From positions 3,919 to 67,918 of IMG/VR virus record IMGVR_UViG_3300032030_000014: a stretch of DNA of 64,000 nucleotides. One strand, given 5' to 3'. The notes below the pieces were generated by a model. It ran no database searches. It was not told where the DNA came from and saw nothing but the letters and a program-made list of their open reading frames with translations. Position 1 is the stretch's first letter, and the number at the start of each line of letters is the position of its first letter. The stretch is from a virus. Below, one piece after another: positions 4,573 to 18,109 of the stretch. Both the position numbers and the translations under genes were made by a program.

Positions 4573-4601
4573 TTGATTTTTTAAAAAAAATATATTATAA
4601 T
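4573..4601 (+). promoter_or_regulatory. conserved phage promoter (TTGATT, 17 nt, TATAAT), family member
   Basis: ttgattttttaaaaaaaatatattataat; this sequence is repeated more than 25 times in the window. Confidence 0.7.
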
Positions 4602-4633
4602 ATATTTAGAAAATAAAAAAAGGAGAAAAAAAA

Positions 4634-4948
4634 ATGTTCGGTTATCATGATTCTAATCGCTGCAAGCTTGATATTTGGGCTCCAAAAGCATATCATTCTT
4701 GTGAAGATGCTGATGAAATCCAGTCTGGGTATGGCGTTTGGGAAGATACTCCCTATTCATGTGCTATTGACAATCGTGCGTTTTCTCCGTATGCAAAGCA
4801 TACTCAAGAGATTGATGATCTGGTCGAAATGATTGCGGCTGGTGGCACGTCTTTTGAACTGGACGATGATTTTTCCGAAGCTGACCTTGAAGAATTGCAA
4901 AGAAAACTTGCGGCAAGAGGTCTTTCAGCAGATTTATCCTTATCATAA
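4634..4948 (+). CDS. hypothetical protein (104 aa)
   Basis: ORF track; RBS aaaggag; preceded by the family promoter. Confidence 0.6.
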   Translation: MFGYHDSNRCKLDIWAPKAYHSCEDADEIQSGYGVWEDTPYSCAIDNRAFSPYAKHTQEIDDLVEMIAAGGTSFELDDDFSEADLEELQRKLAARGLSADLSLS

Positions 4949-4971
4949 TTTTAAGAAAAGGATTGATAACT

Positions 4972-5139
4972 ATGTCTAAGCAGCGAGAAACGCTCGAAGA
5001 AGCCGTAGAAAAGTATCTCAAGTATGAGCCAAGTAATCCTTGTTGGCACGACTTTTGGTATCTTGAGGATATTTGTGGCAAGTACGGATATGATGTAGTT
5101 CGTAAGGAAATTAAACGGCAAGAAAAACTCTCAACTTGA
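4972..5139 (+). CDS. small hypothetical protein (55 aa)
   Basis: ATG with RBS (aaaggattgataactatg); ends TGA. Shorter than the ORF-track cutoff. Confidence 0.4.
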   Translation: MSKQRETLEEAVEKYLKYEPSNPCWHDFWYLEDICGKYGYDVVRKEIKRQEKLST

Positions 5140-5164
5140 TTTTTTAAAAAAAATATATTATAAT
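5136..5164 (+). promoter_or_regulatory. conserved phage promoter (family)
   Basis: cttgattttttaaaaaaaatatattataat. Confidence 0.7.
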
Positions 5165-5196
5165 ATATATACAAGATAAGGAAAGGAGCTTTACCA

Positions 5197-5340
5197 ATGA
5201 CCGTTAAGGAAAAAGAAATGCTGCTTGCTCTTATCAAAGGTCTTACTAAAAGAGCGAATGTCACCCAATATGATAGTGGTATCAAGATTATCAAAGGCAA
5301 AGATGTTGATCTTTTAGAAGAAGCAATCAAAAAAATGTAA
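5197..5340 (+). CDS. small hypothetical protein (47 aa)
   Basis: RBS ggaaaggagc; ATG at 5197; TAA at 5338. Confidence 0.4.
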   Translation: MTVKEKEMLLALIKGLTKRANVTQYDSGIKIIKGKDVDLLEEAIKKM

Positions 5341-5345
5341 TATAT

Positions 5346-5433
5346 CCCTTTCTAGTGTGTTAAAGTAGGCACGTCGGTCTGTAAAACCGAAGCCTTGTGG
5401 CCCGAGTGGGTGCGATTCCCTCGAAAGGGACCA
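5346..5433 (+). tRNA. tRNA-Tyr (anticodon GTA), class II with long variable arm, CCA encoded
   Basis: Acceptor ccctttc/gaaaggg is perfect. Anticodon arm tcggt-ctGTAaa-accga. Long variable arm. Confidence 0.55.
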
Positions 5434-5575
5434 AAGCGGAGTGAACTCCTTCGCTATATAAAATAATAAGGTGAGTAACGCAGGAGAGCCACGTTCCCTG
5501 CCGCCGAGTAATCGGAAAATAGTGCGAGGTTTCCAAGGGGTGGTATGACTTGGGAGTAGTAGAAACCACCAATAT

Positions 5576-5651
5576 GCCTCCTTAGCCCAGTTGGTAGAGC
5601 GACAGACTGTTAATCTGTGGGTCGGCGGTTCGAGCCCGTCAGGAGGCGCCA
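5576..5651 (+). tRNA. tRNA-Asn (GTT), CCA encoded
   Basis: Acceptor gcctcct/aggaggc; anticodon arm acaga-ctGTTaa-tctgt; T-loop ggttcgagcc. Confidence 0.7.
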
Positions 5652-5984
5652 TGTGAAGCAAATCAGCAATTAAGCAAATGTGCGGCTGGTCAACCAAAAG
5701 ACTGTGGATTGGGCGAAATGCCACGATAGTTTTATCAAAAATCGCATCCGTGCTGTGGCACCTGTAGATATTGAGCAAAGCAGGGTGTAGTGATTGCCCT
5801 ATTACACTTGGATTAGGGTCGGAGAGAACAACTTCGTTATAACAAGTAGCGATCGGACTTGTTTGTTCGCCTTCTGGCTATGATGGTGTGGAGCCTCGCC
5901 ACATAGCGTTACATCTTGGGGTTCTCAAAGTGCGAATGGAATATTAGGCATACATTGGGGTGATGATCCTAGTCCCCTCCGTTT

Positions 5985-6058
5985 AGGCGGCTGGTGTAAC
6001 GGTAGCATGTCGGTCTCCAAAACCGTTGGTCTGAGTTCGAATCTTAGGTCGCCTGCCA
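5985..6058 (+). tRNA. tRNA-Trp (CCA)
   Basis: Acceptor aggcggc/gtcgcct; anticodon loop ctCCAaa; T-arm gagttcgaatct; 3' CCA. Confidence 0.55.
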
Positions 6059-6148
6059 AGCCCCGTGAGCTATTATGAGCTACCGGGTAGGACTCACGAC
6101 ATAGGTGGAGTGGTTGCCCATCTTTACATAAATAGCAACCATTTATAT

Positions 6149-6235
6149 CGGCGTGTGGCGGAACAGGTAGACGCGTCAGTTTGAGGGACTGGTGGGCGAA
6201 AGCCCGTGCTGGTTCAAGTCCAGTCATGCCGACCA
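6149..6235 (+). tRNA. tRNA-Leu (GAG), class II
   Basis: D-arm gcggaacaggtagacgc; anticodon arm tcagt-ttGAGgg-actgg; long variable arm; T-arm gctggttcaagtccagt. Confidence 0.6.
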
Positions 6236-6404
6236 GGAGCCGTTACGAGCAAAACTTCATAGGATTATTAGATAAGTCGGACTGATCCTCCGAAACTATT
6301 TGATAAACACCATGACCGCCGATTGGGTCAGAGATTGCTTGGGTTGCAACTTGCTAAGTAATCGTAATCGGATGTGCGGTTGGGCGACCTTAAGTCCGTC
6401 ATAT

Positions 6405-6481
6405 ACCTCGGTAGTTCAGTCCGGCAGAACAGCGGACTCATATTCCGTAGGTCGTTGGTTCAAATCCAACCCGAGGTACCA
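6405..6481 (+). tRNA. tRNA-Met or Ile2 type (CAT)
   Basis: Acceptor acctcgg/ccgaggt; anticodon arm gcgga-ctCATat-tccgt; T-arm gttggttcaaatccaac. Confidence 0.6.
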
Positions 6482-6526
6482 ACCTGGCAAGGTGGCGTAG
6501 CGTGAGCTACAAGTGCCAATGGCTGA

Positions 6527-6600
6527 AGGTACTTAAAACCGGCAATGGCCAAGCCAAGGGTATCCGAAAACCAAGAGGTCATTTATCTATCCAAATAGCA
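6527..6600 (+). repeat. copy 1 of a repeated ~70-nt module (aaaaccggcaatggccaagcc ... aaaaccaagaggtcatttatctatccaaatagca)
   Basis: Direct repeat of copy 2 at 6801-6897, about 85% identical over the flanks. Confidence 0.6.
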
Positions 6601-6777
6601 GGTGGCGGAATAGGTAGACGTAGTGGAGCGTGAGTAAGTAATCAGCGCTACTGGTTAATTGAAATTTTAAAGGCTCTGATAGGCAACCTCGATAGAGTAG
6701 TGGAATGAGAGCAGCTAAGTCCTATTGAAACTTACTCATATAGGGTGCAAATCCTTATCTTGCTATATTATAACTAT
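6594..6777 (+). other. tRNA-like gene with a ~95-nt internal insertion
   Basis: Candidate acceptor tagcagg/cttgcta; D-arm gcggaataggtagacg; T-arm tagggtgcaaatcctta. Anticodon region is unresolved. Confidence 0.25.
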
Positions 6778-6800
6778 TTGTGCGAATGACTGAACGCACG

Positions 6801-6897
6801 TAAAACCGGCAATGGGCAAGCCAGCTCGTAGCTTTATTCATGAAATAATGCTCTTAGCTAAAACCAAGAGGTCCTTTATCTATCCGAATAGCATATT
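6801..6897 (+). repeat. copy 2 of the repeated module (aaaaccggcaatgggcaagcc ... aaaaccaagaggtcctttatctatccgaatagca)
   Basis: See copy 1. Confidence 0.6.
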
Positions 6898-6983
6898 AAG
6901 TAAATCGTAGGTTACTAGTCGTGAAACGTTTTAGTGCGAGTACAGATGACACGACCATCCAAGGCGTGAGGATAGACTTTTAT

Positions 6984-7059
6984 GGGCAGGTAGCTCAGCT
7001 GGTAGAGCGTTGGCCTGAAGAGCCAAGCGTCGGGGGTTCAATTCCCTCCCTGCCCACCA
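6984..7059 (+). tRNA. tRNA-Phe (GAA)
   Basis: gggcagg-ta-gctcagctggtagagc...ttggc-ctGAAga-gccaa...ggttcaattcc...cctgccc-a-cca. Confidence 0.8.
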
Positions 7060-7081
7060 TAAAAACACAAAGGAGATTACT

Positions 7082-7267
7082 ATGCATACCTTCCATTCTC
7101 AGGATAAATACAATTTCCATCATAACGGAGATTTTTCTGGTGATGTAATAATCACCAAGGATAATGACGCTGATTTTGAGGTTGAAATTAGCGGTCAGGC
7201 TCTTCTTGAGTATGCTCGTTATGTGATTGAATCCATTCTTACAGAAAAAATTGAAGATATTATGTAA
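7082..7267 (+). CDS. small hypothetical protein (61 aa) inside the tRNA array
   Basis: RBS aaaggagattactatg. Confidence 0.45.
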   Translation: MHTFHSQDKYNFHHNGDFSGDVIITKDNDADFEVEISGQALLEYARYVIESILTEKIEDIM

Positions 7268-7268
7268 T

Positions 7269-7345
7269 GGTGTAGGTAGCGCAATTGGCAGAGCATCGGA
7301 TTGTGATTCCGAGTGTTGTGGGTTCAAATCCCATCCTTCACCCCA
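7269..7345 (+). tRNA. tRNA-His (GTG) with extra 5' G(-1)
   Basis: Anticodon arm tcgga-ttGTGat-tccga; T-arm gtgggttcaaatcccat. Confidence 0.6.
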
Positions 7346-7348
7346 TAT

Positions 7349-7423
7349 GCCGAGGTCATACAGTGGTTAGTATGCGAAACTGATAATTTCGTCACGGTAG
7401 TTCAACTCTACCCCTTGGCACCA
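7349..7423 (+). tRNA. tRNA-Ile (GAT)
   Basis: Acceptor gccgagg/ccttggc; anticodon arm cgaaa-ctGATaa-tttcg; T-arm gtagttcaactctac; CCA encoded. Confidence 0.6.
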
Positions 7424-7788
7424 GCGGTATAATAACCGTGCATACATAGGGCTTAGAAAATACAGTAATAATGGCTAACGGCAGTTTGCTGATTTAGATC
7501 AGCCAAGTCAGACGGGTCGGGGTTAGCAAAGAAAGGCTAACAGGTAGTACTGCGATAGGTAAGAAATTCGCGTTCCGAAATAAGTCGGGAAAACCGAATG
7601 ATACGGATCAGATACTTTCCACATAAGTGGTCTAGGAAGAGATTTTAGGTAGCGGATAACGACCGCTAGATGCTTCCTTGTAAAGTCACCTTGAAACTAG
7701 GTCATAGCTACCACATTATTACGACTAAAAGAACAATCATCAAGGGAGGGTTCCTCGGTGAAAATCCGAGTCTTGGACTCCCATTTTT

Positions 7789-7946
7789 CCCCGTCTAGCT
7801 CAATTGGTTAGAGCACACGACTTGCTGGTATAGTGTAATGGTAGCACGCAGGATGCCCCTCGTAATCTGGGGAGGAGTAAGTTCGATTCTTACTATCGGC
7901 ACTAATAATCGTGAGGTTCTGTGTTCAATTCACAGGGCGGGGACCA
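7789..7946 (+). tRNA. Pro-like tRNA gene (C1-G72, A73, 5' loop starts ctTGG) interrupted by an ~81-nt insertion in the anticodon loop
   Basis: Acceptor ccccgtc/ggcgggg, D-arm gctcaattggttagagc, anticodon stem cacga/tcgtg and T-arm ctgtgttcaattcacag are all complementary across an 88-nt loop region (7821-7908). Confidence 0.4.
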
Positions 7947-8060
7947 GAGAAGACACACACAGCAATTTACTTTATAAAAGTATATTAGTCCACTGGTAGG
8001 ACGCAATTCTGCAAAAATTGAATAGTGGGTCCGATTCCCACATATATTTTTTAGGTGTCT
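7944..8060 (+). repeat. stem-loop family member (aagacac-ACACAGCAA ... gtgtctt); here the stem encloses tRNA-Cys
   Basis: 7-bp stem aagacac/gtgtctt with the conserved ACAGCAA 5' loop segment. Confidence 0.5.
7979..8049 (+). tRNA. tRNA-Cys (GCA)
   Basis: D-arm gtccactggtaggac; anticodon arm caatt-ctGCAaa-aattg; T-arm gtgggtccgattcccac. Confidence 0.5.
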
Positions 8061-8063
8061 TGA

Positions 8064-8240
8064 ATGAAAAAAGAATTTATTTTCTATTTACCAAAATTAA
8101 ATAAAAATCGTATTATTATAGCCCGTGATGAAGCAACTGCGGTTTGGAAATTGTTTAATCAGTTTCGCTTGCGAGAGAGTGACGTTGATGGGTATAGAAT
8201 AATGCGACAGGGAAAAATTCATAGGAAATTTTCCCTTTGA
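8064..8240 (+). CDS. small hypothetical protein (58 aa)
   Basis: ATG directly after the stem-loop; ends TGA. Below the ORF-track cutoff. Confidence 0.3.
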   Translation: MKKEFIFYLPKLNKNRIIIARDEATAVWKLFNQFRLRESDVDGYRIMRQGKIHRKFSL

Positions 8241-8243
8241 TAT

Positions 8244-8319
8244 GCGGGCTTAGCTCAGCTGGTAGAGCATCGCGTTTACACCGCGGAGGTCGGGGGTCCG
8301 AGTCCCTCAGCCCGTACCA
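8244..8319 (+). tRNA. tRNA-Val (TAC)
   Basis: gcgggct-ta-gctcagctggtagagc...tcgcg-ttTACac-cgcgg...gggggtccgagtccc...agcccgt-a-cca. Confidence 0.8.
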
Positions 8320-8787
8320 AAAAGCATTGGCGTGGAGAGAATAGGCAGAAATTTATATTCAAAACTAGTGGGGAATGTTATACCCAGCCGAGTCAATGCT
8401 TTTTTCCAGACCATATATGCTAGAGTCCTCGCAGGCAGAGGAATATAAAGGTTTCGGGGATGCTTGGTGGTCGAGCCCCAGAAAAAAGTACCACCCTGGC
8501 GGTCAGAGGGATAACCGGTGCATAACGGAAAGAGCCCCGCAAGTCTGACAAGTATATACAAGAAGACGCAATCAGCAACTCAATCTTTATAGAATGATTG
8601 AATGATGTTGGGATAGTTTTTTTATTCCACCGAAGACTGAAAAGTATCTTTTCAGGTTCATAGCCAAGAGAAGGTTTATAGGAGACTAATTTCGGTCTCT
8701 TGGTAACAAAGAAATAAGGTCTCTTGCGTCTTGACTTAGGAGAAAGTAATGGAAATTTACACTTCTTATTTTTATTAGGTTCGTTTT

Positions 8788-9213
8788 ATGAAACCATATA
8801 TGATTCCACTTTCAACTGCTGTGTGGGATCCAAAATGGTTTCATCAAAACAAAGGATAGGATTTTGTTTGGAAAGATAAAAATAATGTGTATAATGGATT
8901 GCGGGCATCGGTGTTTGCTCCTGGTCCTCTCTGTGAAAATCTTTGCAGAGGACCTGAAACTTGTGATACACATGACCCAACAAAATGCTTATTTTTGAAA
9001 ACTTATCGTTATCAACTTGACCAATTGGATTTCAATGATGTAATCGCCCGTTGTGAGCGAATGGGCAATTATATTAAATCACTGGAAAATTTTTCTGAAG
9101 AACCAGTGATAATCCTTCTCGTTCACGAAGCAAAAGATAATCCTTGCTCAGAACGTCGTGTTATCCAAGAGTGGTTTGCCGCACATGGAAAGGAAGTTAC
9201 GGAATGGAGATAA
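8788..9213 (+). CDS. hypothetical protein with one in-frame TAG (141 aa)
   Basis: ATG at 8788 is in frame with ORF 8887..9213; the only intervening stop is TAG (HQNKG-TAG-DFVWKDK). Confidence 0.5.
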
Positions 9214-9443
9214 AACTTAATTATACACAGGAGGAACTATCCACTCTCTTGGATGGACTAAATAATGCTTGTATGGCACTGGCTCATGTATATTCAGCGG
9301 CATATTTAGGTTGCGATATTCCTGGTAGTTTTATACCTATGTTTGAACATCGTAGTTTTGAAGAAATTGAAGAAGTAACCAAATTGCGTTATGGTGCGGT
9401 TAGACAGTTATATAATTTTCTTCTGTCCTACGAAGAAAAATAA
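9204..9443 (+). CDS. hypothetical protein (79 aa), start overlaps the upstream stop
   Basis: ATGGAGATAA overlap; in frame with ORF 9144..9443. Confidence 0.5.
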   Translation: MEIKLNYTQEELSTLLDGLNNACMALAHVYSAAYLGCDIPGSFIPMFEHRSFEEIEEVTKLRYGAVRQLYNFLLSYEEK

Positions 9444-9445
9444 TT

Positions 9446-9520
9446 GCGGGTGTCGTATAACGGCTATTATACCTGGCTTCCACCCAGGAGACGTGGGTTC
9501 GATTCCCATCACTCGCTCCA
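9446..9520 (+). tRNA. tRNA-Gly (TCC)
   Basis: Acceptor gcgggtg/cactcgc; anticodon arm cctgg-ctTCCac-ccagg; T-arm gtgggttcgattcccat; U73; CCA. Confidence 0.75.
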
Positions 9521-9600
9521 ATAGCCGCCAGAGCAATGCGGCATTACCTGCTAGCAAGGTCCTGTAAAAACATGCCCTGCTGGCGGCTTATACCTCTTAT

Positions 9601-9629
9601 TTGATTTTTATAAAAAAATATATTATAAT
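9601..9629 (+). promoter_or_regulatory. conserved phage promoter (family)
   Basis: ttgatttttataaaaaaatatattataat. Confidence 0.7.
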
Positions 9630-9661
9630 ATATTTAGAAAATCAGATAAGAGGTGTTTTCT

Positions 9662-9853
9662 ATGTATTTCTGTCCGTTGTGCTATAAAACTTTCGAGACA
9701 GAGGCGGAAGCTGGAAAGCATTCGCTAAAGTGCTGGAAAGAAAGAAACCCTTATCATCAATCCAAGCCTGCCCCGCACAGCGAGAATATTGAAGAAAGAG
9801 CAATCAATAGCGATATGCTTAATTTCTTTTCTTCTCTCCAAAAGAAGGATTGA
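9662..9853 (+). CDS. small zinc-finger-like protein (FCPLCYKTF...H..KC)
   Basis: RBS aagaggtg; ATG at 9662; C2H2-like motif. Confidence 0.5.
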   Translation: MYFCPLCYKTFETEAEAGKHSLKCWKERNPYHQSKPAPHSENIEERAINSDMLNFFSSLQKKD

Positions 9854-10206
9854 TGATGCAAGAGGTAATGATAAAAACCCACTTAATAGTCACAGATGTT
9901 CACGAAGAATATTTTGTAGATTGGTGTGGGAAAATTGCTAATACAAAACCCCTTTTCAAGAACAATATGCCGATATTTGTTATTATTGGATCTGAGGGGC
10001 GTGTTGAAATAAACACTATTGACATAAAGAGTATTGAAGAATCAGCAAAAAAATTAACTCATCCTCGTGGGCGGCAGGCAATAACGACTGACATAGCCCG
10101 CATTTATATCAAAGAAGAAAATGGAAATGAGAAGTTGATTGGAAGAGTTATTCACAATCACGTTAAAAAATATCAGCAAATGTATGACCCTTTCAACAAG
10201 ATTTGA
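9853..10206 (+). CDS. hypothetical protein (117 aa)
   Basis: ORF track 9850..10206; overlaps the upstream stop. Confidence 0.5.
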   Translation: MMQEVMIKTHLIVTDVHEEYFVDWCGKIANTKPLFKNNMPIFVIIGSEGRVEINTIDIKSIEESAKKLTHPRGRQAITTDIARIYIKEENGNEKLIGRVIHNHVKKYQQMYDPFNKI

Positions 10207-10215
10207 AAATCTCTA

Positions 10216-10244
10216 ATTGATTTTTTAAAAAAAATATATTATAA
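10216..10244 (+). promoter_or_regulatory. conserved phage promoter (family)
   Basis: ttgattttttaaaaaaaatatattataat. Confidence 0.7.
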
Positions 10245-10277
10245 TATATATGTAAGATAAAGAAAGGGGAATGAAAG

Positions 10278-10445
10278 ATGTTTGATGATTTTGACACCCA
10301 GGTTCAGATCGAAGAGATTATCCCCGAAGAGTATGAGGACTGGCTTGAATCCATCCGCAATGAAGAGCATGATGAATGGTTTCGGCAGTTCTGTGAGGAT
10401 ATGGCGCAAGAGCGTTATGAGGAGGGCATTTATGCTGAAGTATGA
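10278..10445 (+). CDS. small acidic protein (55 aa)
   Basis: RBS aagggga; ends TGA, overlapping the next start. Confidence 0.4.
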   Translation: MFDDFDTQVQIEEIIPEEYEDWLESIRNEEHDEWFRQFCEDMAQERYEEGIYAEV

Positions 10446-10698
10446 TATGGTTAAGGAATTCAGTGGTGACGAAGTGTTCGAAGCCTGCCGCAAGCGTTGC
10501 GGTCGTGATATTGAGGGAATCCTCAATGAAACTTACTGCCCGCCTCAGGATGGCGCAATCTGGGTGAGTCTTCCTCCGAAAGATGAGTATGATGACCCTG
10601 AATGTTACAGCCCCGAAGAGATTATTTTGTTCAAGACCCTTCATGAAGATGGCGGGCTTGAGTGGGGCGAGGGCTGTTACATCGCAGTAAGCTACTAA
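10432..10698 (+). CDS. hypothetical protein (88 aa)
   Basis: ATG at 10432 in the frame of ORF 10282..10698; the upstream part of that ORF lies in the promoter and previous gene. Confidence 0.5.
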   Translation: MLKYDMVKEFSGDEVFEACRKRCGRDIEGILNETYCPPQDGAIWVSLPPKDEYDDPECYSPEEIILFKTLHEDGGLEWGEGCYIAVSY

Positions 10699-10714
10699 AC
10701 AAAAAGAACTCCAC

Positions 10715-10743
10715 TTGATTTTTTTAAAAAAATATTATATAAT
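10715..10743 (+). promoter_or_regulatory. conserved phage promoter driving a non-coding region plus tRNAs
   Basis: ttgatttttttaaaaaaatattatataat; no ORF downstream, tRNA-Ala ~170 nt downstream. Confidence 0.6.
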
Positions 10744-10913
10744 ATATATGTAAGATAAAGAAAGGGAATGAAACCGAGATAGAAAGTTGGGCTCGGCATT
10801 GACCATCATCCCTTCATCCAAGGCTCGCGGGAGGAATAATAGACGGACTGAGCATCACTAATTGTGGTTGGAGCGTGAAGAGGACGCCGTTGGCCGCGTT
10901 AAGGCTGATATCT

Positions 10914-10989
10914 GGGGGTGTAGCTCAATCGGTAGAGCGACGGCTTTGCAAGCCGTAGGTAGCGGGATCGTAACCTGTCACCTCCACCA
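10914..10989 (+). tRNA. tRNA-Ala (TGC), non-canonical T-loop (atcgtaa)
   Basis: gggggtg-ta-gctcaatcggtagagc...acggc-ttTGCaa-gccgt...cacctcc-a-cca. Confidence 0.55.
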
Positions 10990-11573
10990 GGCTCGCCCCT
11001 GGCCGCAACGTAAAGGGGTAAAGCGCCACCAGAGATTGATAGTATCTATGGAACTGCAGGCGCGATATAAATAGGTAAATCCAATTACTATTTTGGTCTT
11101 GAAGTTTAGCTTGGGAACAAGCTAACAGGCCACGGCAGTTCGTTTTGAAGTCATCCTGTCGTTATGAAGCGGTGGCCACCGTGAGAATATGATGGAGGGT
11201 GCCGGTCTCGAGAAAAATCCGACCAAAAGGAAGCTGCGGCGTTACCGGTTGCCGCACAACCGCCAATGGATTAAGCGGTATATAAAATGGTTCAGCTCGT
11301 AGCGACCGTCTGGCGCGAGGATAAACAAAAGTTCTTGGCGGCCTATAGCAAGTTAATATAGTTAGTCAGACGTTTGTTGACTAATCTATCACCCTTGCCG
11401 AATAAAATCGGTGCAAATCCGTTGCGGACTACGAAATGCTCAGAGGAATGTCGTAGGAGTAAGGTTCCCAAGGCGGGACATGATTAAGGACTGACGTGTG
11501 GCCCTACGATAAGGTGGCATGAGTTTAGCCCAAGTTTCGAGTCTTTTATCTTTGAAAAAGACGATGAACATAT
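10990..11573 (+). ncRNA. ~580-nt GC-rich (~50% GC) structured non-coding island between tRNA-Ala and tRNA-Asp; function unknown
   Basis: No ORF; sharp GC contrast with the genome; many local hairpins. I looked for tmRNA and RNase P motifs and did not recognise any. Confidence 0.3.
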
Positions 11574-11650
11574 GGCTCCGAGGGAAAACAGGTTGATCCG
11601 CCAGCCTGTCACGCTGGAGATAGCGGGTTCGAGCCCCGCCGGAGTCGCCA
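11574..11650 (+). tRNA. tRNA-Asp (GTC), unusual D-arm
   Basis: Acceptor ggctccg/cggagtc; anticodon arm ccagc-ctGTCac-gctgg; T-arm gcgggttcgagccccgc; G73; CCA. Confidence 0.5.
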
Positions 11651-11723
11651 GAGAGGAAAGTTACATTCGTTCAGAGTGGGTAACAAAGTAGGATGTGAAA
11701 CTGGTTCGGCCTACGTTTTATCT

Positions 11724-11807
11724 GCCGATGTGGCGGAATGGCAGACGCGTCTGCCTTAGGAGCAGATGTCGAAAGGCGTGCAGGTTCAAGTCCTGTCATC
11801 GGTACCA
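11724..11807 (+). tRNA. tRNA-Leu (TAG anticodon, reads CUA/CUG), class II
   Basis: D-arm gcggaatggcagacgc; anticodon arm tctgc-ctTAGga-gcaga; long variable arm; T-arm gcaggttcaagtcctgt; A73; CCA. Confidence 0.65.
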
Positions 11808-11818
11808 ATTTTATATGC

Positions 11819-11977
11819 GGGTTTCGTATAAGAGGTAAGACAGCCCCGAGGAGAGGGGCAGATGTGGGTTCGATCCCCACAACCGGCAAACAGGTTTGAT
11901 GTAAGAGGAAAGCATAGTGGCGGGCATTTGGAAATCCCGCCGCAGGTATGGGTTCGAATCCCATAACCGACAGTTAA
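11819..11977 (+). other. two tandem degenerate tRNA-like elements (possible tRNA pseudogenes)
   Basis: Both have good T-arms (gtgggttcgatccccac; atgggttcgaatcccat) and similar D-like regions. Acceptor and anticodon arms are imperfect. Confidence 0.3.
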
Positions 11978-12282
11978 TAGTATTTGGGTCGTTGCCAACT
12001 TCTACCCGACAAACTACTATGATTATAAACAGATAGTAGAGATTATAACAAAGTGAAGTATGGGTTTAGAGTGATGCTGGTTTATGCGTTCTATGCCGAA
12101 ACGCAATCGGGAATGGCTGTTTGGTTGAAGGTGTAGCCTCGCTCCCGGAAAGGCGAGGGTGAGAAGAACCGCCCGAGGATTTTTGTATCAGTTTTTCCTG
12201 CGCTTGGATAGTGGAAAAACATACGGTTCAGTGATGCCGCTGTTCCAGAAAGATGGGTGCTGCAGACCCCATAAGTGCATAT

Positions 12283-12359
12283 CCTCCTCTACTCCAACTG
12301 GTAGAGAGAGACGGCTCAAACCCGTTATAGTCTCGGTTCGAATCCGAGGGGGAGGACCA
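12283..12359 (+). tRNA. class-I-type tRNA with anticodon CAA (Leu codon UUG) but no long variable arm
   Basis: Acceptor cctcctc/ggggagg; anticodon arm gacgg-ctCAAac-ccgtt; T-arm ctcggttcgaatccgag; A73; CCA. Confidence 0.45.
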
Positions 12360-12372
12360 AAAAATCATTTAG

Positions 12373-12401
12373 TTGATTTTTCAAAAAAAATTTGATATAA
12401 T
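12373..12401 (+). promoter_or_regulatory. conserved phage promoter (family) driving a non-coding RNA region plus tRNAs
   Basis: ttgatttttcaaaaaaaatttgatataat. Confidence 0.65.
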
Positions 12402-12408
12402 ATTTATA

Positions 12409-12759
12409 GAAAGATAAGGAAAGCACCATGAAAGGGTTGGCGGTTATCCCTAAAAACCGTTGGCAACAGTAATCGCACCTCCACGTGGTGTTGCTGGATG
12501 CGAGTGATTTCTCTAGCTCGTAACTAAATGCGATAGATAACATAAGCTTGGCTGACGTCCCAGCCCCTGAGCCATTGAGAAGAATGGAACAGGATACAAC
12601 AGTACCGATGTACGCGCGGAAATTTCGGCCATAGTCAGGGAGCCGTAGAAAAGCTCTATGTTATCAACCTCAGCCCTTGGCGTGGGAGGCGAAACGTTCC
12701 AGCAAAGCAGATGAACTGCTGGTGGTTGTAGGTGACTGTATGGAACCTTCGTAGAAACT
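12409..12759 (+). ncRNA. ~350-nt GC-rich candidate structured ncRNA transcribed from the 12373 promoter, upstream of tRNA-Glu
   Basis: No ORF; ~50% GC; directly downstream of a strong promoter. Identity unknown. Confidence 0.3.
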
Positions 12760-12836
12760 GGCCCTGTCGACAAGAGGCCTAAGTCACCGGCCTTTCAAGC
12801 CGGAGTCGGTGGGTTCGAATCCCCCCAGGGTCACCA
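12760..12836 (+). tRNA. tRNA-Glu (TTC)
   Basis: Acceptor ggccctg/cagggtc; anticodon arm ccggc-ctTTCaa-gccgg; T-loop ttcgaat; CCA. Confidence 0.6.
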
Positions 12837-13129
12837 AAGGCTTCTTATCAATTCAGCCCAATAATAAAGAAGAATTGATACTCGTAGGGATGGATTATTA
12901 CTAAACTACCACCGGCACTCAACCTCGGCGTCCTTTGAGATATGCGGGTCAGTGATATGTGGCTTGTCACTAACGAGTATAAATAAAAGCGAAAGCAAGT
13001 AGAAGCCCATAATGGGGTGGCTGTCCCAGGTCAGGGGGGCGTTTCAAATTATCAGTTGTTCCAAACAGCGCAGTAAATATGACCATTTGGACGAGGAGCG
13101 TGGCTAAGCTCGTTAAACCGCCACATATT

Positions 13130-13206
13130 GGCCCCTTCCTCTAATGGCTTAGGAGTCCGGCCTCTCACGCCGGCAATGTTGAGTTCGAGTCTCACAGGGG
13201 TCACCA
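13130..13206 (+). tRNA. tRNA-Glu (CTC)
   Basis: Acceptor ggcccct/aggggtc; anticodon arm ccggc-ctCTCac-gccgg; T-loop ttcgagt; CCA. Confidence 0.6.
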
Positions 13207-13321
13207 TAGGTAGAGAATCGAGAATCTACCTGCCCCAAGTGCATAGCACTGAGGCGATGCCGTTTGTATTTTTCATATTACTCAGTGCTGGGTATCACAT
13301 TAAACTGCCCACTCCTCATAT

Positions 13322-13400
13322 TGCGGGGTGTTAGCAGTCTGGTAGCTTGCCTGCCTCATAAGCAGGAGGTCGGTGGTTCAAATCCATCCCCCCGCAACCA
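13322..13400 (+). tRNA. second CAT-anticodon tRNA (Met, fMet or Ile2 type)
   Basis: Anticodon arm cctgc-ctCATaa-gcagg; T-arm ggtggttcaaatccatc; acceptor tgcgggg/ccccgca with one extra nucleotide; CCA. Confidence 0.5.
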
Positions 13401-13805
13401 GGTGTTCGCGCACTGTTTTCTCATTCCTCGTTTAAGCTCCCTTCGGAGGGATCCTACTTATCTTGTCTATGGTAACTACCTCCTATAAAAATAAGTCGTT
13501 AATTTTGGTATAGTTAAGTAGGCTGGGGAGTAACACCTCTTCACATACCTTCTTTTCGCAATAAAAACTCTTTTCTGACAGGAGTTTTTAATAAAACTTG
13601 TGTGTTCGTTTTCAGTCTCCTTTCTTTTGGTTTTTTGTTTTGAAAGTGTCCTCTTTCACCGTTGTTCTGTTTTCCACACAAGAATAAATTTTTACCTGTC
13701 AGTTCTTATAAAATTCTTTTTCTAAACCACCAATGATTGGTCTCAAGTCCAATAGGAAGAAGTGCGAGAGGAAAAAGAATTTTTTTTGAAAGGGAGGAAT
13801 TTCAA

Positions 13806-14093
13806 ATGAAGTTCTATTCTGAAAAGCTCAATAAGATGTTCGACACTTAGGAGCTATGTGCTCAAGCAGAGAGCGAGCACGAACAAGCAGTAGCGGAGGC
13901 TGAGGCTAAGAAGAAAGCCCTCGCAGAAGAAAGAGCAACCCGTGCCAAGGCTGTTGAAGATGCATACCGCAAGGCTGTTGAAGCCAAGCAAGAGTATGAT
14001 AAAATCCTTCAAGAGTTCCTTAAAGATTATGGTTCTTTCCACGCTACATTCAAAACCGGCGATCCCTTCTTTGGAATTTTTGACTGGTTTTAA
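13806..14093 (+). CDS. hypothetical protein with one in-frame TAG (95 aa)
   Basis: RBS gggaggaatttcaaatg; frame contains a single TAG (KMFDT-TAG-ELCAQ) and ends TAA. Confidence 0.5.
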
Positions 14094-14134
14094 TCTCTTC
14101 TAAACGCGGCCGGGGCGCAAGTCCCGACCCTTAT

Positions 14135-14229
14135 GTCGGGCTAAGCCTAATTGGTAAGGCATCCGCCTGCTAAGCGGAGAGTAGTCGTCGTAAGGCGGCG
14201 TTTCGGTTCAAGTCCGAAGCCCGACGCCA
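14135..14229 (+). tRNA. tRNA-Ser (GCT), class II
   Basis: Acceptor gtcgggc/gcccgac is perfect; anticodon arm tccgc-ctGCTaa-gcgga; long variable arm; G73; CCA. Confidence 0.75.
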
Positions 14230-14270
14230 GAGCTTTGGCTCTATTTTACGCGTAAAAGGAGAGATTCCCA

Positions 14271-14810
14271 ATGAATGATGTTCGTCTCAAGATTTCACCC
14301 CCATGGATTACTTATATCAATAAGCTGTAGGCTCTATTTGATGGCGATCCGCAGATCGCTTGTAATGTAAATCAGAGTGCGGCAGGACCTTCTATTGTTC
14401 TTGCTTGCAACAATGGTGATAAGGTTGCTGCTCTACAGAGACTTCTTCCAACAGAAAAGAAGTTTGGCAATGTAACCCTCACTATTGGAGTTGATGGAGT
14501 TCCAAGCAATATTGCTTTTCCAACTCCAAAGGCTTTGTTTGATGCCGCTTTTAGTGGTAATCCAGCTTATGCTTATTCCCTATCTCCTTCCGACGAAGGT
14601 TATTGGTTCTTTAGCATGACTTATGTTGTATTCAAGAATTGTGTTGTTCAGTTTTTCAATGATAATCTAAATGATTGTCATGGTTTAATTAGCACACTTT
14701 ATCAGGATATTGCAGCAGAAATCTTTGAAGATGCTGGTTTGAGTGGTGTTTATTATAACACCGATGTTGAAACTGGCAAGCTCGGCAAGCCACTTGGTGA
14801 GTGGCCTTAA
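14271..14810 (+). CDS. hypothetical protein with one in-frame TAG (179 aa)
   Basis: RBS aaaaggagag; ATG at 14271 is in frame with ORF 14535..14810 across one TAG (YINKL-TAG-ALFDG). Confidence 0.55.
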
Positions 14811-14825
14811 TGCGTAAATAATTTA

Positions 14826-14892
14826 AAGGCTCATACAGCAATTTTTTATATATAATTTACTTAAAATAAATTTACATATAAAAAAGAGCCTT
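14826..14892 (+). repeat. stem-loop family member (aaggctc-ATACAGCAA ... gagcctt) preceding tRNA-Ser
   Basis: 7-bp stem with the conserved loop 5' segment; AT-rich ~50-nt loop. Confidence 0.55.
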
Positions 14893-14900
14893 GTTTTTAT

Positions 14901-14994
14901 ACAGTGGTAAGCCTAATTGGTAAGGCACCCGCCTGGAAAGTGGGGAGTAACCGTTAATAGCGGCGTGCGAGTTCAAGTCTCGCCCACTGTGCCA
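14901..14994 (+). tRNA. tRNA-Ser (GGA), class II
   Basis: Acceptor acagtgg/ccactgt is perfect; anticodon arm cccgc-ctGGAaa-gtggg; long variable arm; G73; CCA. Confidence 0.7.
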
Positions 14995-14999
14995 AATAT

Positions 15000-15087
15000 G
15001 CGCGTAATCCGGCTGGATGAGGAAGCGGTCTTGAAAACCGTCGGGGTCCAAAAGCCTTTGGGGGTTCGAGTCCCTCTGCGCGCGCCA
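15000..15087 (+). tRNA. tRNA-Ser (TGA), class II
   Basis: Acceptor gcgcgta/tgcgcgc; anticodon arm gcggt-ctTGAaa-accgt; long variable arm; G73; CCA. Confidence 0.65.
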
Positions 15088-15229
15088 AGACCAAACGCGC
15101 AAGGTTTAGAGGGGTTGTAGTAGAAGAAATAGTCTGGTCTACGCCGGGTGGCGTCATGAACCACAACATGGAGACGCGGCATTCAGTTCCGTCAACCCCT
15201 CGATTTTTAGGAGGATAAAATGGATAAGC

Positions 15230-15375
15230 ATCTTGCAAAAATTTATAAACATCTACGAAAAATTGAGAAGAAATGTGAAAAAAAGGGTATTTCTTCTGCA
15301 GGTCTGCGTCAAGCTATTCTCAATCTCCATGTTGAACTTCATAATATCGGTTTTACCTACGATACTAAGAAATAA
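15230..15375 (+). CDS. small basic protein (48 aa)
   Basis: RBS taggaggataaaatg. Confidence 0.4.
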
Positions 15376-15450
15376 GCCCCGTTAGTCTAATGGATAAAAC
15401 AAAGGACTTCTAATCCTTAGTTCTGCGTTCGAGTCGCAGGCGGGGTGCCA
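15376..15450 (+). tRNA. tRNA-Arg (TCT)
   Basis: Acceptor gccccgt/gcggggt; anticodon arm aagga-ctTCTaa-tcctt; T-arm ctgcgttcgagtcgcag; CCA. Confidence 0.7.
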
Positions 15451-15462
15451 TAAGGAGTAATT

Positions 15463-15933
15463 ATGAAAATTCTAAATACTTCATTAAATATTTTTGATTT
15501 ACCCCAATCTTCTAATTGCGCCGTTTGCGTATTGACAAATGGGGTTATTAAAAAAGATGGTAGTTTAGTTATGGGTGCAGGCCAAGCAAAAGAAGCAGAT
15601 GTAAGATTTAAGTGCGCGAAAGAATTTGGAAAATTAACTGCTGATAGTGGTATTAAACCTTGCTGCTTAAGTAGAAAAGTAACTGGTAATAATACACAAC
15701 CGTATTGGTTATTTAGTTTTCCTACAAAATATCATTGGCGCGATAAGAGTGATCTAAATCTTATTACTATTTCTGCTTATGAAATAGTGAGAATGGTTAA
15801 TAATCTTGAGATAGATACTTGTTATCTTCCTCCTGCGGGATGCGGGTTGGGTGGACTGAATTGGAAAACACAAGTAAAACCAATTCTTGAATCTATTTTA
15901 AATGATCACTTTATAGTAGTATTGCGAGAATAA
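15463..15933 (+). CDS. hypothetical protein (156 aa); weak resemblance to macro-domain / ADP-ribose-binding proteins (VMGAGQAKEA), not secure
   Basis: ORF track; RBS taaggagtaattatg. Confidence 0.5.
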   Translation: MKILNTSLNIFDLPQSSNCAVCVLTNGVIKKDGSLVMGAGQAKEADVRFKCAKEFGKLTADSGIKPCCLSRKVTGNNTQPYWLFSFPTKYHWRDKSDLNLITISAYEIVRMVNNLEIDTCYLPPAGCGLGGLNWKTQVKPILESILNDHFIVVLRE

Positions 15934-15936
15934 TAT

Positions 15937-16011
15937 GCCCCGGTAGTCTAACGGATAGAACATTTGGCTACGGACCAAAGGGTGTGGGTTCGATTCCTGC
16001 TCGGGGTGCCA
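15937..16011 (+). tRNA. tRNA-Arg (ACG)
   Basis: Acceptor gccccgg/tcggggt; anticodon arm tttgg-ctACGga-ccaaa; T-loop ttcgatt; CCA. Confidence 0.65.
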
Positions 16012-16234
16012 AAAGTAGCAAACACTTTAAGTTTGACGGACGCCAGCTATTCCGCTCCATGTCGAAGGGAGTATAAATATGCGATCTTGAGGTAGCTGGA
16101 GGTTGTGGGTTATCCTGTGAAACCCTCTTATATTAGCAAGGTTTAAGCGAATCTGGAAACGGCAAATCCACTCAATTTAGTTGAGGTTAAATCCGAGAGA
16201 ACCGTGTCGCGGCAATCGCAGAGCCGCACTATAT

Positions 16235-16358
16235 GGGGAACTAGGCAAACTGGCAAAGCCGCGTTATAGACGATGTCTAGTCCAAGACAGTGACAGCAAT
16301 TTTTCTTCTTGCATGTAGGAGCACGTGTTTGGTGGTTCGAGTCCACCGTTCCCCACCA
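16235..16358 (+). other. tRNA-like gene with a ~45-nt insertion (candidate intron-containing or aberrant tRNA); anticodon unresolved
   Basis: Acceptor ggggaac/gttcccc is perfect; D-arm ggcaaactggcaaagcc; T-arm ggtggttcgagtccacc; A73; CCA. Interior contains GACAGTGACAGCAA. Confidence 0.35.
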
Positions 16359-16860
16359 TGGTACCAACACCTAACTACAATTTTTTCTTCTGCTATTGCA
16401 TATTTAATTTGCATTAGACAGAGACGCTTAGGTGCAATTTTTGAGAAAACATAGTTTTGTAGTATAACTCAAAACGTGGTCCCAACACGAAAAGTAGGGA
16501 TATAGTGGATAGTATTACTTTATTATTGAACTTCGCGTTCAGGGCGAGAAAAGTTAAATTTAGATTATTAAAACAATTTTGAAACCCAGACGCGCACTCC
16601 ACTCAATGTGCGGCCTGTAAATATGGATTGATAGATTGGGTTGGGGCACCTTATATAAATTTATTTGTTTAGCCAGGAGAGGTTAGTAAATTGCGGAGAG
16701 GTTCATAAGCAACTTTGGTTAGCGGTATGAAGTGTAAACTAAACAAATAGATTTAATAGGTGCCTCAATTTTCTCCACAGGGCTGGCTGCGGCGGCCTCG
16801 GTCATAAAAACCGTCAGCCCAAATCAAAAATGCTTTTTCAAAATTCAAAGAGAAAAATAG

Positions 16861-16889
16861 TTGATTTTTATAAAAAAATATTTTATAAT
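16861..16889 (+). promoter_or_regulatory. conserved phage promoter (family)
   Basis: ttgatttttataaaaaaatattttataat. Confidence 0.7.
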
Positions 16890-16922
16890 ATATATAGAAA
16901 ATAAATCAAGGAGGACCTAAAC

Positions 16923-17117
16923 ATGAATTATAAAAGATACCTGAACTATGAAATTGTCCTTCGGCGTTGCGTTCTTTTGGAAGAGGACGATAATAGACCC
17001 GTTGATGAAATCATTAATGAGGATCTTGATACCAATTGGTTCGTAGAAAATGCTACGAGAGATATGTTTGGTCCAGATGAAGTTCAAAATATTACTATGA
17101 ATTATTATAAAAAGTAA
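16923..17117 (+). CDS. small acidic protein (64 aa)
   Basis: RBS aaggaggacctaaacatg. Confidence 0.5.
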   Translation: MNYKRYLNYEIVLRRCVLLEEDDNRPVDEIINEDLDTNWFVENATRDMFGPDEVQNITMNYYKK

Positions 17118-17536
17118 TGCTGGCGTGGCTCAATGGCAGAGCAGCTGATTTGTTAGCTAAATTTATATCTATGATTGAATTAAGTCCAAAACAAAAAGGT
17201 AATTTAACCGAATTAAAATGCATTAGTGCGTTTTATGAATTAGGTTATCAATGTAGTATCCCTTATGGAGAAAATTCACGGTATGATTTAATTGCGGATA
17301 TAGATGGTAAGCTAATACGGGTACAATGTAAAACTTCAAGAGAAGTTGACGAAGGAGTTATAGAGTTTCCTTGTCGTAGTTCTCGAAGCAATACTCAATC
17401 TAATTTGCAAAGAAGATATACCGCAGACGAAATTGATTATTTCTGTACTTATTGGAAAGGGAAGTGTTATTTAATTCCTATTTCAGAATGTTCAGTAACT
17501 AAAAAACTTCGTTTTATCCCTCCAAAAAACGGATAG
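17117..17536 (+). CDS. ORF inside the tRNA insertion; PD-(D/E)XK-like nuclease motifs (YDLIADIDGKLIRVQCK); candidate intron or homing endonuclease
   Basis: ORF track. Alternative internal start ATG at 17168 (MIELSPKQKGN...). D...D...QxK motif. Confidence 0.45.
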   Translation: MLAWLNGRAADLLAKFISMIELSPKQKGNLTELKCISAFYELGYQCSIPYGENSRYDLIADIDGKLIRVQCKTSREVDEGVIEFPCRSSRSNTQSNLQRRYTADEIDYFCTYWKGKCYLIPISECSVTKKLRFIPPKNG

Positions 17537-17655
17537 AAAGTGGGGATTACTTATGCAAAAGATTATGAACTTCAAGGACAGCTTGAAAAATTGAAAGGTT
17601 AAACATTGGCTAACAAATCAGCAGGTTGGGGGTTCGACTCCCTCCGCCAGCTCCA
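17119..17655 (+). tRNA. split tRNA gene: 5' half (17119-17151) and 3' half (17611-17655) separated by a ~460-nt ORF-containing insertion; anticodon ambiguous (UCA if the exons join as ttt+caaa)
   Basis: Acceptor gctggcg/cgccagc is perfect; D-arm gctcaatggcagagc; anticodon-stem halves gctga and tcagc (extended 9-bp complementarity gctgatttg/caaatcagc); T-arm gggggttcgactccctc; U73; CCA. Confidence 0.5.
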
Positions 17656-17806
17656 CAAGGCTGCCTATGCCTTAAGGGCTTAGTGAAAGGTTTAAAGGTT
17701 TAGCGCTGAATCCTTAAACTAAGTAAATAGGAAGATACAAATAGGAGCCCTACCAAGGGACTGGGAAGAGGGCTGTAACCCCAGTATAAAGCAATCAGCC
17801 TACCGT

Positions 17807-17881
17807 GCGGGTATGGTGTCAGCGGTAGCACATGTGCTTGCCAAGCATAAAGGACGGGTCCGAATCCCGTTACTCGCTCCA
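17807..17881 (+). tRNA. tRNA-Gly (GCC)
   Basis: Acceptor gcgggta/tactcgc; anticodon arm tgtgc-ttGCCaa-gcata; T-arm acgggtccgaatcccgt; U73; CCA. Confidence 0.55.
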
Positions 17882-17890
17882 AAATAAATA

Positions 17891-17999
17891 AAGGCACATA
17901 CAGCAATTACATATAATATATGTACCATCGGTTCAAATCCGATTTCCGCAAATTTTGCGAAATAGCTTAGTTGGTAAAGCAATATAAAAAAAGTGCCTT
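17891..17999 (+). repeat. stem-loop family member (aaggcac-ATACAGCAA ... gtgcctt) enclosing T-arm-like and D-arm-like modules in permuted order
   Basis: Stem aaggcac/gtgcctt. Interior has atcggttcaaatccgat followed by tgcgaaatagcttagttggtaaagc. Confidence 0.4.
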
Positions 18000-18031
18000 G
18001 TGAAAACTTCGTTTTCACGAAGTAAAAATAT

Positions 18032-18109
18032 CGGGGTGTAGCACAGTTTGGCTAGTGCGCGCGCTTTGGGAGCGTGAGGTCGGGGGTTCAAGTCCCTCCA
18101 CCCCGACCA
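18032..18109 (+). tRNA. tRNA-Pro (TGG)
   Basis: Acceptor cggggtg/caccccg (C1-G72); anticodon arm cgcgc-ttTGGga-gcgtg; T-arm gggggttcaagtccctc; A73; CCA. Confidence 0.7.

Follow-up and report, generated by a model that had tools for sequence, protein, structure and literature searches.

The transfer RNA (tRNA) gene cluster of phage T4 encodes small stable RNAs other than tRNAs, which are transcribed together with the tRNAs and mature through the same processing machinery. That phage tRNA arrays harbour structured RNAs is established, with GOLLD, ROOL and theta ribozymes as examples. GOLLD and ROOL are frequently encoded near phage tRNAs (PMC5737381; PMC12286853), and the defining context of theta ribozymes, described from recoded gut Caudoviricetes, is cleavage near a tRNA 3′ end (Kienbeck et al. 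2024, PMC10879173). Here we analyzed a 64,000-nt stretch of viral DNA (hereafter, the window; positions 3,919 to 67,918 of IMG/VR record IMGVR_UViG_3300032030_000014) that derives from a large, TAG-recoded phage of gut/rumen type, and in particular the GC-rich islands free of open reading frames (ORFs) that lie between its tRNA genes around positions 10990–13129. We propose, with a probability of roughly 0.7, that these islands make up the cargo, other than tRNAs, of a transcription unit formed by the phage tRNA array, in which promoter-driven precursors would carry exchangeable RNA modules freed by tRNA processing or by a ribozyme. The islands would resemble the T4 RNAs in being co-transcribed with tRNAs and matured by the tRNA machinery, but they have no sequence relationship to them, and the window array is far larger and holds more RNA types, including predicted ribozymes.

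The islands stand out from their surroundings by base composition. GC content is 47.4% in 10990–11573, 49.0% in 12409–12759 and 44.7% in 12837–13129, all three on the same strand as the tRNAs, and 43.0% in 7424–7788, 41.7% in 8320–8760, 49.4% in 10750–10913 and 45.0% in 11974–12282, compared with 37.7% for the whole window and roughly 25–35% for coding DNA near the islands. The initial annotation had put five of these islands at about 50% GC; the contrast with the surroundings is real, and the figure is slightly generous for the islands it listed (41.7–49.0%). Its description of the named gaps as ORF-free was borne out, as they contain no ORF of at least 100 amino acids under code 11. Two islands do lie directly behind copies of a promoter family, both on the + strand and both matching 10 of 12 positions of TTGATT-17 nt-TATAAT: one at 10715–10743, from which transcription would start near 10750, and one at 12373–12401, with an extended TG and a likely start near 12408. 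Each is one of six window copies of a 62-nt repeat family.

Single-sequence folding was less persuasive. The annotation had described many stable hairpins, yet minimum free energy z-scores of the islands against dinucleotide shuffles were only −1.8, −1.6 and −0.3, and those of conserved blocks of ~100 nt were near zero. Evidence for structure must therefore come from comparison with relatives, and it is there that the claim found backing. As the comparison set we used 79 IMG/VR loci, on contigs of up to 200 kb, which were found through a 179-aa protein encoded inside the array (14271–14810). One of these loci, L063, is syntenic with window positions 5984–18995 at a background identity of ~72–75%.

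A well-supported RNA family absent from Rfam, which we call S5, occupies 12880–13002 on the + strand. Starting from 12837–13129, iterative nhmmer searches settled on a core of ~120 nt that 35 of 80 sequences contain. The fold consists of three nested helices, P1 (12880–85 with 12973–78), P4 (12909–12 with 12959–62) and P5 (12916–18 with 12952–54, topped by a variable hairpin), and a pseudoknot helix, P3 (12898–902 with 12998–13002), that crosses P1; all helices are present in the window. The conserved joining regions are AACUAC, GAUAUG and GCGAAAG in the window, and the conserved elements by which the family is defined are AACUAC, GRUAUG and GCRAAGUAA. To test the fold, we aligned 20 'type I' members, the window copy excluded, in a plain MAFFT run: 98.4% of paired cells were complementary, 13 of 19 pairs showed compensated changes, none of 500 shuffles did as well, and slid controls reached 29–43%. 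The covariation analysis across related phages that the annotation had called for thus gave a strong signal for this element.

Searches beyond the original set gave the same picture. A covariance model of the nested helices only, built without the window (R2), matched window positions 12871–13007 with 51.9 bits (E = 5.6e-9) and found 36 copies among 81 sources. A pattern search with AACTACCACYGRC-N35-65-GRTATGTGGC recovered 54 IMG/VR contigs and 9 contigs from metagenome-assembled genomes (ruminant-gut and other) of up to 182 kb, the latter being probably binned phage DNA; among these pattern contigs the model identified 60 copies in the 61 sources searched. Pairing in 57 further distinct sequences was 96.2%, compared with 74.9% after shuffling (0 of 500 as good), and P3, although outside the model, was 90–95% paired, with one of its pairs occurring as CG:20, GC:17, UA:9 and AU:3. 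Pairs of P5, P1 and P3 ranked highest by mutual information, which also brought out a J1–J2 pair, a G·A/A·G exchange in the P4/P5 internal loop and a three-way co-variation of C/U in J1 with G/A in J3 and C/U in J2, a pattern compatible with C-G·C/U-A·U base triples. A Watson–Crick helix between J1 and J2 was considered and found unsupported by eye, the mutual information there reflecting isolated contacts. At E ≤ 10, neither the window copy nor a type I representative matched any of the 4227 families of Rfam 15. S5 is similar to the RAGATH and cow-rumen motifs of the Weinberg/Breaker-lab surveys in being a conserved, covariation-supported RNA of rumen and gut phage DNA, and differs from RAGATH-33 and the cow-rumen motifs in that it forms an H-type pseudoknot (P1 and P3) enclosing a P4–P5 hairpin of variable length, with the J1–J2–J3 co-variation.

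The distribution of S5 ties it to tRNA genes. All of the more than 80 distinct homologues lie a few kilobases or less from tRNA genes on large phage-like contigs, tRNA genes were present in every fetched locus, and many copies start at most 120 nt downstream of a tRNA, most commonly tRNA-Glu, though other tRNAs are neighbours too. Several copies are flush between two tRNAs with spacers of 1–5 nt, the arrangement that release by tRNA processing would require. S5 looks like a stand-alone RNA gene matured along with tRNAs, and its compact, highly conserved fold would imply a specific molecular job, either partner binding or catalysis. A bolder reading would make S5 a new catalytic or tRNA-directed RNA, such as a self-cleaving ribozyme of tRNA trailers or a captor of a host factor, and would separately assign the 584-nt island 10990–11573 the role of a new 'ornate' RNA comparable to ROOL or GOLLD. 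The S5 part draws on the compact, double-pseudoknot-like core, in which ~30 unpaired nucleotides are nearly invariant and a triple co-varies, on the strict confinement to tRNA arrays and on copies that begin 3–5 nt after a tRNA end; trailer trimming by S5 would be the job of theta ribozymes performed by an unrelated fold. We consider this reading doubtful. An HDV-like identity for S5 was rejected on sequence: P1 and P3 have a strand order like that of HDV P1 and P2, but a variable hairpin takes the place of the invariant P3/L3, and 10 nt separate this hairpin from the 3′ strand of P1. Shorter, 79-nt 'mini' relatives with P1 and the 3′ A-rich block, and without P4 and P5, were seen in four related loci (L026 1637–1715, L034 1413–1491, L079 8827–8905 and L019 8785–8863).

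The second element, at 12462–12534 on the + strand, is a predicted HDV-like self-cleaving ribozyme fold with an extended P4. It was recognized through a block, CACCTCCACGTGGTGTT.CTGG, common to the window and one related locus, L013, which as RNA forms the full nested double pseudoknot in canonical helix order. P1 (12462–67 with 12490–95; GGCAAC/GUUGCU) opens with G12462·U12495; P2 pairs 12472–76 with 12530–34 (AUCGC/GCGAU), and the 3-bp P3 pairs 12477–79 with 12487–89 (ACC/GGU). The L3 sequence is UCCACGU (DNA TCCACGT), of which C12481 and C12482 pair with G12497 and G12496 as P1.1 (CC/GG). P4 comprises 5 bp (12500–04 with 12517–21; GCGAG/CUCGU) plus a 12-nt loop, and J4/2 (AACUAAAU) contains the candidate catalytic C12524. 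Cleavage is predicted between 12461 and 12462. The only Rfam signal in the island 12409–12759 was drz-agam-1 (RF01787; 19.6 bits, E = 0.3 in a 776-nt search), which starts at the same G and has the core ACCUCCNCGUGGU in common with the window; the window sequence conforms to its core consensus, ACCUCCuCGuGGU, and P3/L3 (ACC/UCCACGU/GGU) followed by the GG at 12496–97 is identical to that consensus.

A first, loose HDV descriptor matched shuffled sequence as often as real sequence and was tightened. The strict descriptor required a G-initiated P1 of 6–7 bp, a P2 of at least 5 bp, a 3-bp P3, an L3 of the form [U/G]CCN[C/A]GN, a CC/GG P1.1 and a C in J4/2. Over 1.42 Mb it gave 20 matches on the + strand, a single one in the window and 19 elsewhere; the − strand and five shuffles yielded no match. 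The G·U at the base of P1 is present in all 19 aligned copies, in which P1 and P2 are nearly free of fixed sequence yet always complementary, with both-sided changes in 6 of 7 P1 pairs and 9 of 9 P2 pairs. The J4/2 segment with the candidate C12524 corresponds to the CU[A/G]A before P2 in most aligned relatives, but 1–2 purines stand between C12524 and P4 in the fold as drawn.

The resemblance to theta ribozymes is close in the core and looser in context. Shared with these ribozymes (PMC10879173) are the nested double pseudoknot, the cleavage-site G·U, the UCCACGU L3, the CC/GG P1.1 and, as a candidate catalytic base, the C in J4/2, and the phage itself resembles their hosts (PMC10879173) in being TAG-recoded, in its large tRNA array and in encoding a DRB0094-like RNA ligase, a family reported to be enriched in theta-carrying phages (PMC10879173). 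Unlike theta ribozymes, the window copy is promoter-proximal and away from a tRNA 3′ end, and its P4 is extended rather than minimal; CCA is encoded by most window tRNAs, compared with only 4.5% of theta-adjacent tRNAs. The fold lies ~54 nt 3′ of the likely promoter start, an arrangement also found in L013, and 102 nt downstream of tRNA-Leu(caa). The same extended-P4 sub-type occurs in L013 and L006. Among the relatives' copies, 7 of 19 start no more than 3 nt from a tRNA 3′ end, in keeping with the published theta context (PMC10879173). With respect to the theta subgroup features, a minimal P4/L4 and a cut within ±5 nt of a tRNA 3′ end, the window copy has neither, and the copies at L063 6566 and L050 12208 have both. 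We therefore regard 12462–12534 as an HDV-like ribozyme candidate and not as a strict theta ribozyme. In L050 (IMGVR_UViG_3300026549_001121), seven HDV-like/theta ribozymes lie in 13 kb of the tRNA array (positions 4398–17064), and four directly abut tRNA 3′ ends. By eye, a mini-ORF in the window leader (12429–12473) stops at a TAA within J1/2 of the predicted ribozyme, whose folding could thus be disturbed by translation.

The 584-nt island 10990–11573 (S2, + strand) probably contains a large structured RNA that is narrowly distributed and has its conserved core at 11126–11520. Its sole homologue is in the L063 contig, so that only two sequences are available and no consensus is claimable: scans of IMG/VR with a 17-mer and of JGI metagenomes with a 20-mer for the S2 core returned only this contig and two chance matches in coding DNA. 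A nearly invariant 97-nt block (11133–11229, 93% identical to L063 4539–4636) is followed by a patchily conserved part, in which RNAalifold predicted 71 pairs, 11 of them compensated, from the two sequences. By eye, a hairpin UGCGGC..GCCGCA in the window is replaced by UGUAAU..AUUACA in L063 around a conserved CCGGU loop, and L063 carries a 19-nt hairpin inserted in another loop. S2 is ROOL-like in its length (584 nt, compared with a 574-position model), its place between two tRNAs of a phage array, its lack of ORFs and its compensated helices, and it appears to sit in the kind of position in which related phages carry ROOL. It is unlike ROOL and GOLLD in having no sequence similarity to either and only two known members. 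An identification as ROOL was rejected: a 901-nt search gave no Rfam match at E ≤ 10, and a profile built from 20 ROOLs of related phages (hidden Markov model, --max) gave no match at E ≤ 10.

The comparison with L063 also bears on whether the islands encode small proteins that were overlooked because TAG is read as sense. The radical-SAM/SPASM genes at 3141–4502 and 18882–20114 are uninterrupted only with TAG as a sense codon, and therefore the phage uses TAG as sense, like code 15; three real array genes (8731–9213, 13737–14093 and 14271–14810) become visible only under TAG readthrough. Moreover, the leaders behind both promoters (10768–10848 and 12429–12473) show, by eye, a Shine–Dalgarno-like sequence followed by ATG-AAA mini-ORFs. 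Readthrough of TAG in the islands themselves, however, yields only short ORFs of 51–87 aa or ones that overlap tRNA genes. The S2 indels relative to L063 (19 and 29 nt) break the frame, stem substitutions are paired, and S5 variation tracks base-pairing rather than codons. Small proteins are thus a very improbable explanation of the islands.

The islands are mosaics of independent structured modules and not single RNAs. We tiled the array and searched each tile by iterative nhmmer against the related loci. Tiles holding promoter-family copies matched 33–60 loci; apart from these, three non-coding tiles were widespread, 6600–6799 (22 loci), 12800–13099 (33) and 16200–16399 (23), of which the first is probably another RNA family. 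No paralogy was found among the islands. Against the ~72–75% background between the window and L063, blocks of 91–95% identity stand out, and module order differs between the two. The leader RNA ahead of tRNA-Ala(tgc) (10750–10913, + strand) shares its first ~60 nt with leaders in L006 and L063. It contains a 95-nt module, 10816–10910, that is 94.7% identical to L063 17944–18038; there it follows tRNA-Lys(ctt), at another array position, and therefore this module has moved. In the place of the window's tRNA-Ala(tgc) (10914–10989, + strand, 61.8 bits), upstream of the S2 core, L063 has a theta ribozyme (4427–4483), and either device would define the 5′ end of the RNA.

Module S3 (11974–12282, + strand), immediately 5′ of tRNA-Leu(caa), is conserved over ~12060–12280 with its sole homologue found, L063 5597–5815 (75–85% identity; 64 predicted pairs, 8 compensated), and is probably a large structured RNA of narrow distribution, for which two sequences allow no consensus to be claimed. 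In the island that holds the ribozyme, 12430–12680 matches L013; downstream of the ribozyme, the + strand module 12535–12664 is common to L013 only, with the conserved blocks GGATACAACAGTA and GCGCG..AATTTCGG.CATA. Module S4b (12665–12759, + strand), adjoining tRNA-Glu(ttc) on the 5′ side, is homologous to L006 5576–5668; its hairpin AGCAG/CTGCT reads TGCAG/CTGCA in L006 (by eye), where 12665–12757 follows a different leader, one resembling 10750–10815. The GC-rich spacer before tRNA-Glu(ctc) (13003–13129, + strand) matched only itself and could be a private RNA or plain spacer. An Rfam search of seven related loci at gathering score found ROOL (328 bits), cow-rumen-3 and a tmRNA among their tRNAs. 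ROOL is present in 20 of the 79 loci, and since its flanking tRNAs differ among relatives, there is no fixed 'slot'. These comparisons indicate that modules are exchangeable between phages and are bounded by tRNAs or ribozymes.

Two further islands contain small modules. Within 7424–7788, the segment 7474–7605 (+ strand) matches the RAGATH-33 RNA (RF03102) over model positions 1–113 of 113 with 116.6 bits (E = 7e-26), just under the gathering cutoff of 120.4 because of a 19-nt insertion in the first hairpin loop; we treat it as a probable RAGATH-33 member slightly below gathering score. Inside 8320–8760, a conserved module of ~130 nt (8406–8538, + strand) is homologous to segments of L063, L046/L108 and L098; of its 22 predicted pairs, 4 are compensated. 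The annotation's suggestion of novel phage non-coding RNAs is accordingly supported for several pieces, namely 12880–13002, 12462–12534, 11126–11520 and, as a near-threshold RAGATH-33, 7474–7605; the units are modules rather than whole islands.

From these elements we envisage the following pathway. The strong promoters at 10715 and 12373 would drive long precursors in which tRNAs alternate with GC-rich RNA modules, the modules recombining between related phages. Host RNase P, at tRNA 5′ ends, and RNase Z or another 3′-end nuclease would free the modules at the flanking tRNA ends; 3′-end processing of tRNA-Ala(tgc) would thereby set the 5′ end of S2. The HDV-like ribozyme would cut at 12461/12462, taking off a leader of ~54 nt (12408–12461, + strand, as placed by the promoter and the ribozyme G1; no homologue of it was found) and leaving a 5′-OH RNA that extends to tRNA-Glu. 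The freed RNAs would act in trans.

Several considerations weigh against this pathway. Transcription, processing and cleavage are all inferred from sequence, and folding energies are not significantly better than those of shuffles. S2, S3, 12535–12664, 13003–13129 and the leader have at most one homologue in ~2 Mb of related arrays, and structural selection on S2, S3 and similarly sparse modules rests on two-sequence comparisons. The 100% pairing in the ribozyme alignment is by construction; because the descriptor itself demanded pairing, the information lies in the range of pair types and in the bias towards one strand. The drz-agam-1 score of 19.6 bits is far under the gathering cutoff of 37. 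Rfam HDV-like models detect divergent HDV-like ribozymes poorly. P4 of the window fold is extended, with the candidate catalytic C 1–2 nt from it, and the fold would probably fail the published minimal 'theta' descriptor.

Some of these points would also fit islands that are mostly junk, that is, decayed tRNA genes and spacers with tRNA-like GC content in which only incidental pieces, such as processing signals, are conserved. tRNA decay does happen in such arrays, as L063 4954–4994 is only the 5′ half of a tRNA-Asp gene that the window keeps whole at the same position; 11890–11972 is a sub-threshold tRNA-like sequence (27.3 bits), most modules occur in only one or a few relatives, and folding energies are unremarkable. 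There is, however, no tRNA-like match at E ≤ 10 inside 10990–11573, 12409–12759 or 12837–13129. The blocks of 91–95% identity, the compensated helices in S2, S3 and S4b, and the S5 and HDV-like families, which are clearly under structural selection, likewise argue against decay. We consider this explanation unlikely for the islands as a whole, and it may hold for 13003–13129 and parts of 10990–11125.

Rfam searches bear on two other interpretations. At gathering score the whole window yielded tRNAs only, and tmRNA, RNase P RNA, 6S RNA, group I and II introns and Y RNA/YrlA gave nothing at E ≤ 10 in 5000–16500 or in two focused searches. The annotation had recognized no tmRNA, RNase P, 6S or group I core motif by eye, and the Rfam searches showed tmRNA, RNase P and 6S RNA to be absent from the window. 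It had also raised the idea of unrecognised introns. tRNA-associated self-splicing introns or their remnants would account for GC-rich, structured, ORF-free sequence beside tRNAs, and a tRNA-like gene at 16234–16358 has an internal insert of ~60 nt. With no group I/II signal even at E ≤ 10, with islands lying between complete tRNA genes of normal score rather than within them, and with modules found at other array positions in relatives without split exons, introns are hardly credible.

Alternatively, one or more of the RNAs could be the partner of a TROVE-like or MVP-like protein, as Y RNA is of Ro60 and vault RNA of the TEP1–MVP particle. The window encodes a DUF2828/DUF7788 (TROVE/vWA-like) protein (28044–29585), an MVP-like protein with MVP-shoulder and Vault_3 domains (30761–33271) and the DRB0094-like RNA ligase, and jumbo-phage TROVE has been discussed as an RNA-repair platform with a tRNA-like RNA partner (PMC7824862). 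The TROVE-like gene, with 50–57% GC compared with 17–35% in its neighbours, is common in such phages, with at least 184 relatives in IMG/VR from large gut phages (top amino-acid identity, 87%), and L063 and L071 carry both the gene and S5. On the other hand, no match to Y-RNA, YrlA or vault-RNA models was obtained, no RNA adjoins the TROVE-like gene, whose flanking gaps are AT-rich, and S5 closes by a pseudoknot whereas Y RNAs typically close by a 5′/3′ terminal stem. Such a partnership is improbable compared with the proposed role of the islands as processed array cargo.

Relative to what was known of phage tRNA arrays, S5 adds a well-supported family outside Rfam with members enough for structural and biochemical work. 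The predicted HDV-like variant would add a promoter-proximal ribozyme placed away from tRNAs, with the same layout in a second phage, and S2 and S3 would add one or two lineage-specific large RNAs. The density of cargo is high, with at least five distinct RNA types in ~6 kb of the window, and the comparisons provide evidence for RNAs as exchangeable modules with tRNA or ribozyme borders. Should any of them prove to influence the maturation of tRNAs, the host's RNA-targeting defence or the switch in the meaning of TAG, this would bear directly on how recoded large phages take over translation.

The phage has no close relative that we could find among deposited genomes: blastn of 10700–13200 against INPHARED gave tRNA matches only, the top one in Phass-1 (code-15 clade), and an exact 25-mer of an island was absent from IMG/VR. 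Used as search anchors, the small flanking proteins 10282–10698 and 15463–15933 led to one distant locus each, with no tRNAs there. The window holds 35 tRNA genes, every one on the + strand (5346–26540), including two suppressor tRNAs with CTA anticodons (24736–24810 and 25009–25083, + strand). It also codes for gyrase A and B, an NAD-dependent ligase and an SPFH/flotillin-family protein (43141–44619). Immediately 5′ of the radical-SAM/SPASM gene 3141–4502 is a gene (2358–3125) for a 255-aa Cys/Thr/Gly-rich repeat protein with CTGGC-type repeats; together the two look like a phage-encoded precursor-plus-maturase pair for a modified peptide.

Within the array, another ORF-free gap contains a two-copy internal repeat (6513–6600 and 6780–6893, 86–94% identical). 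Two weak tRNA-like sequences, 11816–11889 (35.1 bits) and 11890–11972, lie side by side and may be degenerating or unusual tRNAs; the L063 counterpart of the latter is called as tRNA-Phe(gaa). The tRNA-like gene at 16234–16358 has an acceptor stem, a T-arm and ACCA in addition to its insert, and was called by neither ARAGORN nor Rfam. Its insert motif, AAGAC-N4-CAGCAAUU..GC..AGGAGC, precedes T-arms in ~30 related loci, and the 5′ half of the motif repeats in the window at 7950, 14826, 16284 and 17891.

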